A stretch of DNA of 39,161 nucleotides from a virus (lineage: Duplodnaviria; Caudoviricetes). This document shows, piece after piece, positions 1-21,170 of this stretch. Position 1 is the first letter of the stretch; each line of letters begins with the position of its first letter. Made by a program: the position numbers and the translations under genes. The notes beneath the pieces were generated by a model. It saw only the letters and a list, made by a program, of their open reading frames with translations. It did not search any database and had not been told where the DNA came from. The stretch is taken from the IMG/VR virus record IMGVR_UViG_3300013767_000191, positions 1-39,161 of that record; one strand, 5' to 3'.

Positions 1-612
1 TCATCCTGATAACCGCCGGCTCGAAACACCCGGTTCCCACGACGCTAGTGCGGGATCTTGTGGGCGGCCTTTACTGTCGACGCCGGCATCAAGCATGGCC
101 AGAGCCTGGGAGAACAGGCGAAGCCCTATAGGGGCGAGTTCTCTGCGCCACAGTGCTTGCGGCGTGTCATCCGGCCGGACGTGGCACCAGTCCTGGGCGA
201 GCACCGGCCCGGTATCCGCGCCATCGTCCAACCAGTAGACCGAACCGCCGGTAACCGGCTCGCGCATATGAATAGCCCAATGCACCGCGTCCCGGCCTCG
301 ATGCCTTGGCAACAACGACGGGTGATAGCCCAGCGCGCCGTGCGTTGCCTTGGCGCGGACTTCTTCATCTATATAGACGTGGGCATACGCCGTGAGGATG
401 ACATCACACGGCGGCACCTGGTCGGCGCTCAGGCGGCCTTGGGCGCAGCCGGCCGGTATTCCGAGCTGTTGGGCCGCCGCGTAGAGCCTGTCGTATTCGC
501 CGTCTGCTCCGATGGCTGGGCTGATGGCGATCACCACTTGGTGCCCTTCAGTCAGGCAACGTTTCAACAACTCGGCTGCCAACCACTTCTGGCCAATGAT
601 CGCTACTCGCAT
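1..612 (-). CDS. 10-formyl-THF-dependent formyltransferase/hydrolase domain protein (203 aa)
   Basis: Starts at MRVAIIGQ (ATG 612, overlapping the upstream stop at 603). Motifs GYHPSLLPRHRG and WLDDGADTGP of the formyl_trans_N fold. Confidence 0.9.
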   Translation of the reverse strand: MRVAIIGQKWLAAELLKRCLTEGHQVVIAISPAIGADGEYDRLYAAAQQLGIPAGCAQGRLSADQVPPCDVILTAYAHVYIDEEVRAKATHGALGYHPSLLPRHRGRDAVHWAIHMREPVTGGSVYWLDDGADTGPVLAQDWCHVRPDDTPQALWRRELAPIGLRLFSQALAMLDAGVDSKGRPQDPALASWEPGVSSRRLSG

Positions 613-1727
613 GCGTTCTCCCCGAGGTAACGAAAACCCTGAACCGCCCGGAAGTGGCCGCCAAAGCCGCTGCCGGCGCTGGAATGTCGCCCAAGCCGGC
701 GGTTGCTCTCTATCAGGCTCTGGCGGCTTTTGGCGTAGTTGCCGCCGACCAGTGACGCCGAGACTTGCGTCCATCGCTTGTCCCTTCGAAGCGCGGCACC
801 AAGGCCTGGATGGCTGGTGTGGAACAACGTGCGTAGCGGCCGGCCGTAGCGGTTGCTTCCCTCTAACCACCGGCCGCACAAGGTGTTGAGGAAACGCATC
901 CCAACTCCGGCGCCTTGCCACTCAGGCATCACGACCAGCCGGCAAGCCCGCGCCTCGATCAGCCCCGGCCGGGTTGAAAACGCGATGTGAGCTACCGGTT
1001 CCCCGTTGACCCAGCCCACATAGTGAGTAGAGGCAACCATCGGGGGCAGTTTCAGATAGTGATGCGGCTCAAACAGGGCATAGTCGCGCTGCTTAGCCTC
1101 GCGGATCTCAAGCTCAAAGCTTGGTCTTGGCCGAAGCCACCCCCGATGAAATTCGCCGGTACCGCTGTCGTAAACCCAATCAGGCTGAACCCAGTCCAGG
1201 ATGTCGTAGTGGCAGGAAAGGAGAACCACCTGCCCGGACGTCCGGCGCCACGCCTTGGCGAATGCGGCGGCGCCCACACGGGCGATCTGCCGGTCTACTA
1301 CCGAGCTGAACTCATCGACGACGGCCATGCCAGGCGCCTCACAAACAAGCCTGGCCAAGTTCGCCCGGAACTGTTCCCCATTGGATAGCACCGAAAATGG
1401 CCGAAGCCATGCGGGCACTGTTCCTAGCCCAACGGCCGACAGTGCGCCGGTCACTTCGTCGAATGACCCCATCGGGTCAATCGCGTCAATGATTGGCAGG
1501 TTTTTCGGCCAGCGGGGGCTGTAGAGCGTGCCAATGGCCTTGCCCAGCGTCGTCTTTCCAGAACCTGACGGCCCGACAACGACGCCAATCTTCCACGGCA
1601 GATCCTCAATCGGCAGATCGGCCGCGACGTCGACGTCACAGCCCGACTCCACGTTGAACAAGGATTTGACCCGAGCGGCCCGGTAGCTATCGAAGTCGGA
1701 ACAGTGGTGGGAAACCTGAACCTTCAT
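603..1727 (-). CDS. ABC-type ATPase fused to a GNAT acyltransferase (374 aa), at the mom position
   Basis: Walker A GPSGSGKTT, signature LSNGEQFR, Walker B VVDE, H-loop SCH. C-terminal GNAT motif A RLVVMPEWQGAGVG. ATG at 1727 in an ATGA overlap with the upstream small ORF. Confidence 0.88.
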   Translation of the reverse strand: MKVQVSHHCSDFDSYRAARVKSLFNVESGCDVDVAADLPIEDLPWKIGVVVGPSGSGKTTLGKAIGTLYSPRWPKNLPIIDAIDPMGSFDEVTGALSAVGLGTVPAWLRPFSVLSNGEQFRANLARLVCEAPGMAVVDEFSSVVDRQIARVGAAAFAKAWRRTSGQVVLLSCHYDILDWVQPDWVYDSGTGEFHRGWLRPRPSFELEIREAKQRDYALFEPHHYLKLPPMVASTHYVGWVNGEPVAHIAFSTRPGLIEARACRLVVMPEWQGAGVGMRFLNTLCGRWLEGSNRYGRPLRTLFHTSHPGLGAALRRDKRWTQVSASLVGGNYAKSRQSLIESNRRLGRHSSAGSGFGGHFRAVQGFRYLGENACE

Positions 1728-1876
1728 ACGCACACCACCCGGACTTTGTAGCCGAGGGACTTGAGCTGTTGAAAGGCGCTCTGTTGGCCTGATTCATTGG
1801 GGCAAACCACGATGACGCCAAATTGCGGCTTGTACTTGAACCCGTTACGGCCGGGGGCTTTGCGTTGCTTTTCCAT
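1724..1876 (-). CDS. Small 50-aa protein of the modification operon (not in ORF track)
   Basis: Read by hand: MEKQRKAPGRNGFKYKPQFGVIVVCPNESGQQSAFQQLKSLGYKVRVVCV. GAGG SD lies 5 nt upstream and the TGA overlaps the ATPase ATG. Confidence 0.78.
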   Translation of the reverse strand: MEKQRKAPGRNGFKYKPQFGVIVVCPNESGQQSAFQQLKSLGYKVRVVCV

Positions 1877-2039
1877 GACAGCCTCTATCATCGGCGCTCG
1901 GCGGCGCTTGAGGAATGAGGCTCACGGCCTTCTGGTGGTTGATGGCCCCGCAGCGGGGGCACTTTATTTGAACCTCGCTCGGCGGCGATATCTTCGCGAG
2001 CAACCTACGGCATTGACCACAACGTACTTCTTGCATCAT
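1845..2039 (-). CDS. com: Com-family zinc-finger translational regulator (64 aa)
   Basis: MMQEVRCGQCRRLLAK...QIKCPRCGAIN, the Mu Com CxxC...CPRC pattern, at the terminal late locus. Confidence 0.92.
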   Translation of the reverse strand: MMQEVRCGQCRRLLAKISPPSEVQIKCPRCGAINHQKAVSLIPQAPPSADDRGCHGKATQSPRP

Positions 2040-2177: not shown

Positions 2178-2630
2178 TCACCCCGTACACAACTCGCCCA
2201 TGGGCGGCAGCATCCATAAATGCTGCGGCGTAACCCGGCGCAGACTCTCACAGCGGTACCACGGCTCTCCCGCCTCAGCCGCTGACCAGGCAATCAGCTC
2301 GGAACAAAACCAAGCGTCCCGCTCTTGCCAGTCACGGCGCAGCCCGAGGCCGAGTATGGCCGTCCAGTCGTAGGGTTTGCCGAGCTGGCTCCGGGCTGCC
2401 GCGATGATCCGCTGAGGATCGCGGGCCGGCAGTTCGACAAGGGCTGTATCCCTTGCCCGGCTGATAGCGTCATCGAGCTTGAGCTGGCGCACGCCATAGA
2501 ACGGGGTGGCCTCGACCACTAGTTCATCTACAACTAGAGCGACGTGGCTCCAACGCGACCAGGTGGCCGCACGGATCATTGCCCCCATTGGGCTGTTAGA
2601 GCTGCTGAACAACAGGCGTATGGTGCGCAT
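2178..2630 (-). CDS. Permuted papain-like NlpC/P60 (YiiX/YebB-like) amidase
   Basis: WSHVALV, GKPYDW and WFCSEL, with His before Cys. Alternative start at 2636. Confidence 0.85.
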   Translation of the reverse strand: MRTIRLLFSSSNSPMGAMIRAATWSRWSHVALVVDELVVEATPFYGVRQLKLDDAISRARDTALVELPARDPQRIIAAARSQLGKPYDWTAILGLGLRRDWQERDAWFCSELIAWSAAEAGEPWYRCESLRRVTPQHLWMLPPMGELCTG

Positions 2631-2632
2631 CG

Positions 2633-3211
2633 TCAACCCTTCGCGTTCCCTACGCCGGTAACAGCCGTTTGGATATCCTTGATAGCATCGGCAGCGATCT
2701 GTTTAGCCTCATCAATTGCGCCCGCTGCAATCTTCCCCCTGATCAGCTCTTTCGCCTCCAAGCGCCGTTCACGGATCTGATAAAGCACCTCCGCATACTG
2801 AGCCGCTTCGGTCAGGATGCTGTCGGCGGCTTCCTGGGGCGTGCGGCCGGTAATTGCCCAAGCAGCAACGGTGCGCGGTACCGCGTCTGCCGGATAGCCG
2901 GCGTCTTTGAATGCTTGCGCCTCGGACGCCGCTCGTTCGTATTCGACTGCCCGGAGCGGATCGCCCGCAACAATCTGTCGCGCCTGGTCGGCGTAGTTAT
3001 CAATCCTTGCGCACAAGTCAGCGGCGGTAGGCACAGGCTCGCCATCATGCTCCCACTGGCCTATCCACTCACCGGATTCCTTAATTCGCGTTCCTTTAAA
3101 GCGCGGGTTCCAGCAGGGTTGCGGCAATGGCGCAATCGTCCAGTGTTTCGCCCCGGCGGAGTTGTCAGCGGCGTAGAGAAATAGCCCGTTTTGATCAATA
3201 ACGTAAATCAT
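2633..3211 (-). CDS. Tail fibre assembly/chaperone protein
   Basis: Follows the tail fibre. GDPLRAVEYERA..EAQAFKDAGY motif typical of Pseudomonas phage tail-associated proteins. Confidence 0.7.
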   Translation of the reverse strand: MIYVIDQNGLFLYAADNSAGAKHWTIAPLPQPCWNPRFKGTRIKESGEWIGQWEHDGEPVPTAADLCARIDNYADQARQIVAGDPLRAVEYERAASEAQAFKDAGYPADAVPRTVAAWAITGRTPQEAADSILTEAAQYAEVLYQIRERRLEAKELIRGKIAAGAIDEAKQIAADAIKDIQTAVTGVGNAKG

Positions 3212-3220
3212 GCTGCCCCC

Positions 3221-4711
3221 TTAAGCCGCTTGAACGCAGAAGCTGAGTTGACATTCAAACCCGCCAGCTCCGGCGGTCGACCCTGTCGCATAGTCCAGAA
3301 CAACCTCGCCGGTCGCCTCCGCTCGCCATGACAACCATCCCAACGCGAACGGACTGGTCGTCGCCCAATCGCCTGTACCGCAGACCCTGATGAGCGGCCG
3401 GAAACCTGGCGGAAGTGTGAACATTACGAGCGCTCCGGCACCGTTACTGACCCAGCGCGAGCAGTCTATTGTCACGTAGACATTGCCGTTGGCCTTCCAG
3501 AATCGACACGTGTTTCTAGGATCTGAGAAGCCATTGATGAACGCCGGCACTTGGATGTTTGGCGCGGAAAAGTTTGCGAAATTGTTGGCAATAACCTGAT
3601 TGGTAACGGCAGCGGTGTAGGTATCAGTGATCCCGTAGCCCGCCAGTGTGCTGGCTTTGTTGGCCTTGGCGTTTGGGTCAAAGTTGCCGGTGTGCCACAC
3701 GTCACGGGTCGGCGTCCAAGTACCGTCGTTTTTCACTGAGCGAATCGACACGCGCGGCTCTGGATTGCCTTGTTGAAATCCAATCTGAGCGGCATACCCT
3801 GCGGAGCCATAAGGAATATTAACTATCGATGAATACGGCGCGAGACTGGTTGGCCCCTCGTTACAGTAGTAAAAACCTCCGGGAAGACCGATGGTGTCGA
3901 TACTGGCAAGAGGGGCGACATTTGCCGCCAAGCCGTAGGCACCGATTTTAATGGCATCGGTGATTCCATAGCCTTGCAGGGTGGTTGGCTTTCCGCTGGA
4001 AATTTTGCTCCAGTCCAGGCTTGGAATATCCGCCTGCACAAGCCCCACGCTACCGACAACCAAACCTTTGGCATTGATAGTGACCTTCGCATAGCTGCCG
4101 GCAACGACGCCAATGTCGGCAAGCGCTATGGCAATGTTGGCATTCGCCGATCCATCAAATGACGCACTGCCGACCGCCGCGCCGGAGATGGAAATACTGC
4201 GTGCTGTCTCAAGCTTTCGGGCCGCTACGGCCGCTACGGCGGTTCCGTTGATCCCGAGGGCGTCAGTGATTCCGTACCCGCCAAGCGTGGTGGGCTTGCC
4301 GGTCTTGATCTTGCTCCAGTCCAGATCCGGGATGTCCGAGCTGGCCAGCGCGCCGCCGTCCGTTACCAGCCCCTTAACATTGACGGTCACCTTCTGGTAA
4401 ACGCCCGCTGCAACTCCGCTGTCTGCAAGTGTTATGGAAATGTTGGCGTCCGCGCTGCCATCGAAAGACGCGTTGCCAAACGCGGCCCCGCTGATGGAGA
4501 GCTTCCGGGCCGTCGCCAGTCTGGTGGCCTTGTATGCGGCGACAGTGCCTTCGATAAGCGCTTCGAACTTGGCCTTTAGCCAGACAGTTCGGCTCGCGAG
4601 TGCCTTGGCAGCTTTATTGGCGATCCCGTCAGGGCCACCTAATACGGGGTCGGGCGTCTCAATTTGATAGACGCCATCCGGCCACTCTGGCGGTTCGGGT
4701 AGGTTTGCCAT
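3221..4711 (-). CDS. Tail fibre protein
   Basis: N-terminal YQIETPDPVLGGPDGIAN baseplate-anchor motif, repeated KPTTLxGYGITDA units and a variable C-terminal domain. Confidence 0.92.
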   Translation of the reverse strand: MANLPEPPEWPDGVYQIETPDPVLGGPDGIANKAAKALASRTVWLKAKFEALIEGTVAAYKATRLATARKLSISGAAFGNASFDGSADANISITLADSGVAAGVYQKVTVNVKGLVTDGGALASSDIPDLDWSKIKTGKPTTLGGYGITDALGINGTAVAAVAARKLETARSISISGAAVGSASFDGSANANIAIALADIGVVAGSYAKVTINAKGLVVGSVGLVQADIPSLDWSKISSGKPTTLQGYGITDAIKIGAYGLAANVAPLASIDTIGLPGGFYYCNEGPTSLAPYSSIVNIPYGSAGYAAQIGFQQGNPEPRVSIRSVKNDGTWTPTRDVWHTGNFDPNAKANKASTLAGYGITDTYTAAVTNQVIANNFANFSAPNIQVPAFINGFSDPRNTCRFWKANGNVYVTIDCSRWVSNGAGALVMFTLPPGFRPLIRVCGTGDWATTSPFALGWLSWRAEATGEVVLDYATGSTAGAGGFECQLSFCVQAA

Positions 4712-20510: not shown

Positions 20511-21170
20511 ATGACAAAAAAGAAAACGGCACAACCTCCGAAGACTCCAACGTCTAAAACACTCTCCCACACTGAAGCTATGGAACGGATGGCTTCTCGT
20601 ATTCGCTTTGCGGGGAACCTTCTCGATGCCGAAGGAGGCTTGGAAAAATCAAGTTCGATTTACAAAGAGAAGTTTGTTGATCTGTTAAGCCGGCTTCCAG
20701 AGTACCTAGTCGTGGACCAATATTATTTGGCTTTTGGATTCCAGAGTCTCAGGGAATCGGATTTAAAGATTATCCGAGCTGACATGTTGATCGAGCGTGC
20801 AACTCGTTCATTTGCTGAAAGCCGAGCCGCGAGTCCTAAAGTGATCGATAGCTTGCGGCAGTACGCCGCTATTCGGAGTTTTGCGAAAGCAATGACAGAG
20901 CCAGGAGAAACGTCTTGGGTATGGATGGCAGCGAAGCACCTCTCCGATGCCCGTAACAATGTGGCTCATGAATTAGAAAATATCGAGGTCGAAAAACACA
21001 TGGCCAATTTTTATAAGGCCGTTGGAATTCCTCCTGCAGAAAATTACGAGAATTTGGAGCAAGCGGTCATCATTTTGAGCGGTCACATTTTTCAAATGAA
21101 GCAATCTTGGCTTGACCGCAAAGCCGTTTGTGAGCGGCTTTACGCTGAAAGCCAGCAACCAAGAGGCTGA
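20511..21170 (+). CDS. Low-GC moron, helical protein with a HEPN-like RxxxxH motif
   Basis: 219 aa, AT-richer than flanks, contains ARNNVAHE, antisense to the head genes. Confidence 0.7.
   Translation: MTKKKTAQPPKTPTSKTLSHTEAMERMASRIRFAGNLLDAEGGLEKSSSIYKEKFVDLLSRLPEYLVVDQYYLAFGFQSLRESDLKIIRADMLIERATRSFAESRAASPKVIDSLRQYAAIRSFAKAMTEPGETSWVWMAAKHLSDARNNVAHELENIEVEKHMANFYKAVGIPPAENYENLEQAVIILSGHIFQMKQSWLDRKAVCERLYAESQQPRG

Follow-up and report, generated by a model that had tools for sequence, protein, structure and literature searches.

At one end of the virus genome recorded in IMG/VR as IMGVR_UViG_3300013767_000191 (Duplodnaviria; Caudoviricetes), genes for a zinc-ribbon translational activator (Com), a 50-amino-acid (50-aa) open reading frame (ORF), an ABC ATPase fused to a GNAT-fold acyltransferase (ABC-GNAT) and a formyltransferase lie together, and the question that this locus raises is what these proteins make and on which molecule they make it. 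We analysed positions 1 to 39,161 of the record, a stretch of 39,161 nucleotides (nt) that we refer to as the window. The window comes from a Mu-like phage (it contains transposase A/B, late-activator and contractile-tail genes), its late genes are oriented towards base 1, and its first 2,039 bases consist of the four genes, which overlap and all lie on the minus strand. By analogy with phage Mu, we consider this cassette likely to be a late phage operon that is switched on by Com. On balance we lean towards the cassette acylating phage DNA, when a direct route from acyl-coenzyme A (acyl-CoA) and a two-step route are counted together; the direct acyl-CoA route to the phage's own DNA bases, taken by itself, falls in our estimation a little short of an even chance. 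The purpose of such acylation would probably be to block host restriction enzymes.

Results

The core of the cassette has a counterpart in the literature. A passage in Iyer et al. 2021 (PMC7824862) describes a GNAT with an ABC ATPase that was predicted in 2013 to place an acyl modification, uncharacterised so far, on a DNA base, and gives QAX98348.1 as an example. This protein is a homologue of the ABC-GNAT of the window (34.5% identity, 84% coverage, E 5e-42), as is a protein of Tenacibaculum phage pT24 (E 7e-47). With the same fusion, a homologous example and the same predicted reaction class, the window cassette is, as far as sequence comparison goes, a variant of the predicted GNAT+ABC DNA-acylation system, and an earlier note on this DNA was right to suspect that similar systems had been predicted computationally. 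The main text of Iyer et al. 2021 does not contain the word 'formyl', and the passage concerned mentions neither Com control nor a 50-aa partner; the 2013 paper may name them. (Note that QAX98348.1, which the passage gives beside pT24, comes from Aeromonas phage AsFcp_2, where it is located at L086:2399-3577, and that the annotation of pT24 splits its homologue into two genes.) A full-text literature search, which reached few subscription papers, found no experiments on the cassette. The ABC-GNAT family is large: 7,244 relatives were found among 8,000 candidates scored, falling into 507 clusters at 50% identity (E up to 1e-30), and the core occurs in 61 GenBank phage records and in phages of both Gram-negative and Gram-positive hosts as well as T4-like phages.

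That four overlapping genes led by Com stand at the end of a Mu-like phage, as the earlier note had described, is borne out by coordinates, overlaps and the end of shared sequence alike. The com gene (1845..2039, minus strand) encodes 64 aa of the Mu Com family of zinc-ribbon translational activators (PF10122, E 2.8e-18; phrog_6417) and overlaps the 50-aa ORF (1724..1876, minus strand; phrog_28816) by 32 nt. The 50-aa ORF overlaps the gene for the 374-aa ABC-GNAT (603..1727, minus strand; PF00005, PF00583, phrog_11143) by 4 nt (ATGA), and this gene in turn overlaps that of the 203-aa formyltransferase (1..612, minus strand) by 10 nt. The sequence that four close relatives have in common runs to a CA located 117-118 nt past the formyltransferase stop codon and ends there, and therefore the cassette lies at the genome end. 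In the first sample of ABC-GNAT loci, which comprised the best 80 of the 553 viral loci matched by the fusion protein, the small ORF was present in 78 and com in 70, and the formyltransferase in 54 of the 60 loci that have at least 580 nt downstream. Moreover, the overlap between the small ORF and ABC-GNAT was 4 nt in all 83 loci with both genes. The grouping of these genes is not due to chance. (Note that we found no sigma-70-type promoter in positions 1-2700.)

Two RNA hairpins precede the 50-aa ORF. The window Com is 60% identical to the Com of phage B3 over residues 2-49, and according to a passage in PMC6483171 the Com of Mu binds CC(N2-3)GAG in a hairpin loop close to the mom start. Both hairpins of the window fit this motif. 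Com box 1 (1918..1930, minus strand) lies inside the com coding sequence and has a 4-bp stem and a loop of the form C-N2-GA; Com box 2 (1894..1907, minus strand) has a 4-bp stem and a loop of the form C-N3-GA, and its CC begins 28 nt upstream of the ATG of the 50-aa ORF. Among 79 loci with the small ORF, which represent 73 unique regions, at least one Com box was found in 62 regions and two boxes in 39, compared to shuffled expectations of 1.4 and 0.01, respectively, and none was found in 219 control windows inside the fusion gene. Com boxes were present in 66 of the 71 loci with com and in two of the eight without it, and pairing was kept in 23 stem variants, a pattern of compensatory change. 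An Rfam scan of positions 1700-2300 gave no match near the gathering score. Given a zinc-ribbon gene that overlaps its neighbour and hairpins of this kind, the cassette is predicted to be a Com-controlled operon of the Mu com-mom type. The com overlap, the CC(N2-3)GAG hairpins and the position at the genome end are shared with Mu com-mom as described in passages of PMC6483171, PMC7261163 and PMC13219725, whereas the window differs from it in that three genes take the place of one, an ABC ATPase is among their products and the CoA loop is retained. (Note that com is unannotated in phiE255, at ~2686-2865 of locus L083, and in Komp_PAO1_1, at ~3695-3928 of locus L087, despite a clear homologue in each.)

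A comparison of genome ends indicated what else can follow com. Tandem Com boxes and com stand ahead of mom in JD024, ahead of dam in B3 and UMP151, and ahead of the cassette in Komp_PAO1_1 and phiE255; thus, the slot in transposable Pseudomonas phages alternates among mom, dam and the cassette. (When the baseplate gene was used to look for what closely related phages carry in the slot, 26 loci were returned.) The earlier note had suggested looking for co-occurrence at mom loci; none of 80 Mom loci had a cassette gene within 1.5 kb of Mom. In BcepMu and vB_E274 no cassette gene is annotated at the same genome end, where an O-acyltransferase is found instead, and the cassette is therefore accessory.

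The 50-aa ORF recurs well beyond the loci that have com. In a second, broader sample of 80 ABC-GNAT loci, of which four repeat contigs of the first, the small domain was found in 72, mostly carried on a ParB-like protein, and com in 11. The profile of the ORF matches residues 162-201, the last 40, of Gordonia phage Axumite gp1 (E 6e-17), which is annotated as ParB-like, and in eight long proteins (of 270 scanned) the small domain is fused ahead of the ABC domain. Because the profile matches the ParB-like gp1 and these fused proteins, and because the ORF recurs across loci, we regard it as a piece of the machine rather than as spurious; it is the C-terminal domain of a ParB-like partner standing alone, and is predicted to serve as an adaptor and a translational-coupling leader. 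At distant loci, ParB_N was detected in three of six upstream representatives, and terminase families in nine of 82 neighbour representatives. In another phage, a ParB-like protein has been shown to activate a dioxygenase that modifies DNA (bioRxiv 2025.08.14.668559). (Note that a homologue of the 50-aa ORF in Porphyromonas phage008a, L082:2876-3004, E 5e-19, is annotated as 'acr candidate', a label that may, to judge from the match, be wrong.)

The ABC half of the fusion is intact, as the earlier note had read it. In an AlphaFold2 model of ABC-GNAT (predicted local distance difference test, pLDDT, 90.4) residues 1-200 form the ABC domain and residues 201-370 the GNAT domain, and a fold search matched both folds with Z 13-15 (about 14 for the ABC domain). 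The ATPase has the ABC signature, the D-loop and the H-loop; in 110 aligned homologues Walker A K58, signature residues S115/G117 and Walker B residues D138/E139 are present in all 110, and H-loop H173 in 109. We rejected the possibility of an ABC transporter, since no permease recurs among the neighbours and the ATPase is fused to a GNAT. In seven of 80 loci (L501, L502, L503, L505, L506, L507 and L509) the ABC and GNAT halves lie in different frames. The frame change is always -1 and falls where the linker has 7-10 consecutive A, ~600 nt past the gene start (the window has no such stretch of A), which suggests programmed slippage that would yield an ABC-only protein along with the fused one. 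In addition, one distant ABC-GNAT (P0210) contains a Hint/LAGLIDADG intein in its N-terminal part.

The QGxG loop of GNATs binds CoA. The GNAT of the window, which carries an H-H-Y-L motif, retains this loop (Q271 in 109, G272 in 109 and G274 in 107 of the 110 homologues), whereas QGxG is absent at the equivalent place in 81 Mom sequences; because the GNAT retains a loop that Mom lacks, an acyl-CoA is the likelier donor than an aminoacyl-tRNA. With respect to the acceptor, the basic character of the GNAT and the alignment of its H-Y pair and R263 are two limited hints that favour a nucleic-acid target. The isoelectric point (pI) of the GNAT is 10.5 (family median 10.2, n=110). By comparison, the median of 23 E. 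coli GNATs is 6.4, and TmcA and one Mom have values of 9.6 and 10.0, respectively. Residues Y224, H223 and R263, which are present in 110, 108 and 109 of the 110 homologues, respectively, align with H377/Y378 and R460 of TmcA (probability 70.8%, E 3.8e-5, with control GNATs scoring as well), and we take TmcA H377 to be the equivalent of Kre33 H545. The H-Y pair also aligns with the HHY of Mom, and HY was found in the corresponding region of one of 23 E. coli GNAT stretches. In Mu Mom, the substitutions H58A and Y59A cost most of the activity, according to a passage in PMC13219725.

The earlier note had compared the fusion to TmcA. The comparison stands insofar as TmcA, Kre33 and NAT10 likewise have an ATPase and an acyl-CoA GNAT on one chain, with an H-Y pair and a motif-A Arg that align. 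It is loose in that the ATPase of TmcA/Kre33 is a RecD-type helicase domain (described in part of PMC4344512) whereas that of the window is an ABC domain, and the window GNAT is no closer to TmcA than to ordinary GNATs. Together, the basic GNAT, the ParB-like partner and the terminase neighbours indirectly support nucleic acid as the target. One alternative, which we regard as unlikely and yet the foremost of those considered, is that the GNAT acts late in infection on RNA (tRNA or rRNA) or on a protein, whether of the host's defences, the virion or the packaging machinery. In fold, the GNAT is indeed nearest to protein N-acetyltransferases such as RimI, Ard1 and Naa50, the H-Y motif aligns with that of an RNA enzyme, a basic surface suits RNA as well as DNA, and the small ORF bears the 'acr candidate' label in Porphyromonas phages; arguing for DNA instead are the placement of the cassette in the mom/dam slot of transposable phages and the ParB-like and terminase genes that adjoin it in distant phages, as they adjoin phage DNA-modification genes.

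The last gene of the cassette encodes a formyltransferase domain of the 10-formyl-tetrahydrofolate (10-formyl-THF) type (PF00551, E 4.6e-20), in agreement with the earlier note. Its best solved relative is the N-terminal domain of ALDH1L1 (2bw0, E 9e-28; 51 sequences matched), and the matches to sugar formyltransferases (2e-13), Fmt (4e-11) and PurN (2e-10) are weaker; the gene product is thus of the ALDH1L1 N-terminal (FDH hydrolase) type, consisting of the catalytic domain alone. Residues H97, S99 and D133 were present in 40 of 40 sequences and G95 in 38, position 95 being, we presume, that of the catalytic Asn of PurN and Fmt. The His/Ser/Asp triad and the motif YHPSLLPRHRG are common to this enzyme and the ALDH1L1 domain, whereas a carrier-protein or dehydrogenase domain is missing from it, and HypX is outside the 51 matched sequences. 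Passages in PMC6802093 and PMC8748788 describe the ALDH1L1 domain as handing formyl to a 4'-phosphopantetheine thiol and report a proposal that HypX makes formyl-CoA. By analogy, thiol-formylating relatives beside a CoA-using GNAT suggest formyl-CoA as the donor. (Note that a C-terminal GHxR motif is present in 57 of 58 members of the formyltransferase clade, and that ten Gordonia phages carry both ABC-GNAT and formyltransferase.) In one distant locus (L528:4076-4639) a CoA-transferase gene (PF01144, E 2e-34), cut by the contig end, overlaps the end of ABC-GNAT in the place of the formyltransferase.

The formyltransferase also bears on a further alternative with DNA as the target, which we consider doubtful, and less probable than action on RNA or protein, namely that the GNAT first attaches an acetyl group or one that bears an amine, and that a free amine is afterwards capped by the formyltransferase, on the model of DpdN (predicted, dPreQ1) and Fmt (Met-tRNA). 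The formylated DNA base fdPreQ1 and the predicted PF00551 enzyme DpdN are described in part of bioRxiv 2023.04.13.536721, Mom uses Gly-tRNA (passages of the Mu com-mom papers PMC6483171, PMC7261163 and PMC13219725), and the formyltransferase is optional, as a capping step would be. DpdN is, like the window enzyme, a phage PF00551 protein, and it is tied to a formylated DNA base; however, it is predicted to formylate a deazaguanine side-chain amine and is encoded beside dpdA/que genes, none of which is in the window cassette. The cassette has no gene for an amine-bearing base, its GNAT retains the CoA loop that Mom lacks, and the resemblance of its formyltransferase to the ALDH1L1 domain, which formylates a thiol, far exceeds that to Fmt or PurN.

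Two other genes of the window deserve mention. A gene at 2178-2636 (minus strand), between the tail-fibre assembly gene and com, resembles those of permuted papain-like C92 peptidases; we ruled it out as a part of the unit, as it is present in just six of 80 related loci. A 219-aa ORF at 20511-21170 (plus strand) lies on the opposite strand amid the head genes, has no PHROG match and is a possible moron.

Discussion

Direct acylation of the phage's DNA from an acyl-CoA, with formyl as the likeliest group to be transferred, would proceed as follows in the window. Com would bind the two hairpins in its own mRNA, as Mu Com does, and so open translation of the 50-aa ORF; the overlapping stop and start codons would then couple translation of ABC-GNAT and formyltransferase to it. 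The formyltransferase, if it behaves like its ALDH1L1-type relatives and as proposed for HypX, would move formyl from 10-formyl-THF to the thiol of CoA, and the GNAT would pass the group on to the exocyclic amine of a DNA base (cytosine N4 or adenine N6), while the ABC ATPase and its putative ParB-derived adaptor would use ATP to load onto or open the duplex. This specific scheme, a formyl-CoA relay that feeds an ATP-driven GNAT and N-formylates a canonical base after replication (giving N4-formyl-C or N6-formyl-A), is in our view tentative, possible rather than probable. Where relatives lack the formyltransferase, the donor would be a different acyl-CoA.

Several observations weigh against acylation of DNA or against parts of this scheme. 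The GNAT fold is a generic one, and the structures closest to this domain belong to acetyltransferases that act on proteins or small molecules (RimI: Z 13.8, root-mean-square deviation 2.8, 133 aligned), although a RimI-like fold match is uninformative on the substrate. Neither Mom nor TmcA was among the 50 best matches listed in fold searches with the whole protein and with the GNAT alone, an absence that excludes nothing. Mu Mom and the window GNAT share a GNAT fold with an H-Y pair, yet their profile-profile match is not significant (E 0.17), and PF25680 (Mom) gave no match to ABC-GNAT at E 0.1, compared to 4e-73 for JD024 Mom. The ABC-GNAT profile has stronger matches among ordinary E. coli GNATs (best E 2e-7) than in TmcA (7e-3), and in the second sample Tyr occupies position 223 in 27 of 78 loci. 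The formyltransferase is confined to one clade: after 13 loci with less than 400 nt downstream had been set aside from the second sample, it was present in 42 of the 48 loci at 45% identity or more, and thus missing in six of them, and in none of the 19 below. The CoA-transferase neighbour was seen once, and a search found no second viral locus. N6-acyl adenine is described as unstable in a passage of PMC13219725. The folding test of the Com switch is weak: the start region of the 50-aa ORF is paired in the free RNA fold, and when the boxes were fixed in predicted folds its accessibility rose in 43 of 63 loci, from 0.44 to 0.52, little above the 0.49 of random blocks, and in the window it fell from 0.32 to 0.24.

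The contents of com loci in general must be added to these points. Among 80 loci selected by com (L208-L287; of the 77 proteins other than the cassette, 32 were compared to Pfam and the others assigned by matching N-termini), 78 had at least one Com box, three held the cassette, 14 held a DNA methylase (eight D12, four N6/N4 and two C5) and 63 held other cargo, including bacteriocins of the lectin and colicin M types, glycoside hydrolases and proteins of unknown kind. (In Pseudomonas-type prophages the cargo also includes a cellulase, an alginate lyase, DUF642, DUF6242 and gp25, and an unnamed protein of ~106 aa recurs there.) Levan production in P. syringae was unchanged by a com stop codon, as reported in a passage of PMC3899960. 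Thus, the com slot is a more general module that lacks specificity for DNA modification; of the mom-type slot envisaged in the earlier note, what stands is that com and its boxes precede mom, dam or the cassette. That the cassette is instead lysis-linked cargo which modifies a small molecule or surface sugar, like other com or genome-end genes, is improbable: much of the other com cargo consists of secreted enzymes or bacteriocins, in BcepMu and vB_E274 this genome end holds an O-acyltransferase gene, and PF00551 also takes in sugar formyltransferases, but the scanned neighbours include no recurrent partner of the membrane, sugar-nucleotide or glycosyltransferase kind, the core spans the wide range of phages noted above and sugar enzymes match far below ALDH1L1 (2e-13 vs 9e-28).

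The reaction class of the core enzyme is already predicted in print (in the passage of PMC7824862); the present analysis adds the Com-type hairpins, the identification of the 50-aa ORF as a domain detached from a ParB-like partner and the hypothesis of an ALDH1L1-type donor. The donor hypothesis and the Com boxes render the question testable, and isolated carriers grow on common laboratory hosts (Komp_PAO1_1 on PAO1, and the ten Gordonia phages noted above). If DNA is the molecule that is acylated, then the cassette and its relatives would be a common kind of DNA armour in phages that has so far gone undescribed, and a labile formyl or acetyl mark could have escaped standard nucleoside work-ups. 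If, furthermore, the formyl-CoA relay operates, then it would provide a new DNA base and a new use of formyl-CoA, and the formyltransferase would be an add-on donor module through which a very widespread family of phage enzymes comes to write a different acyl mark.

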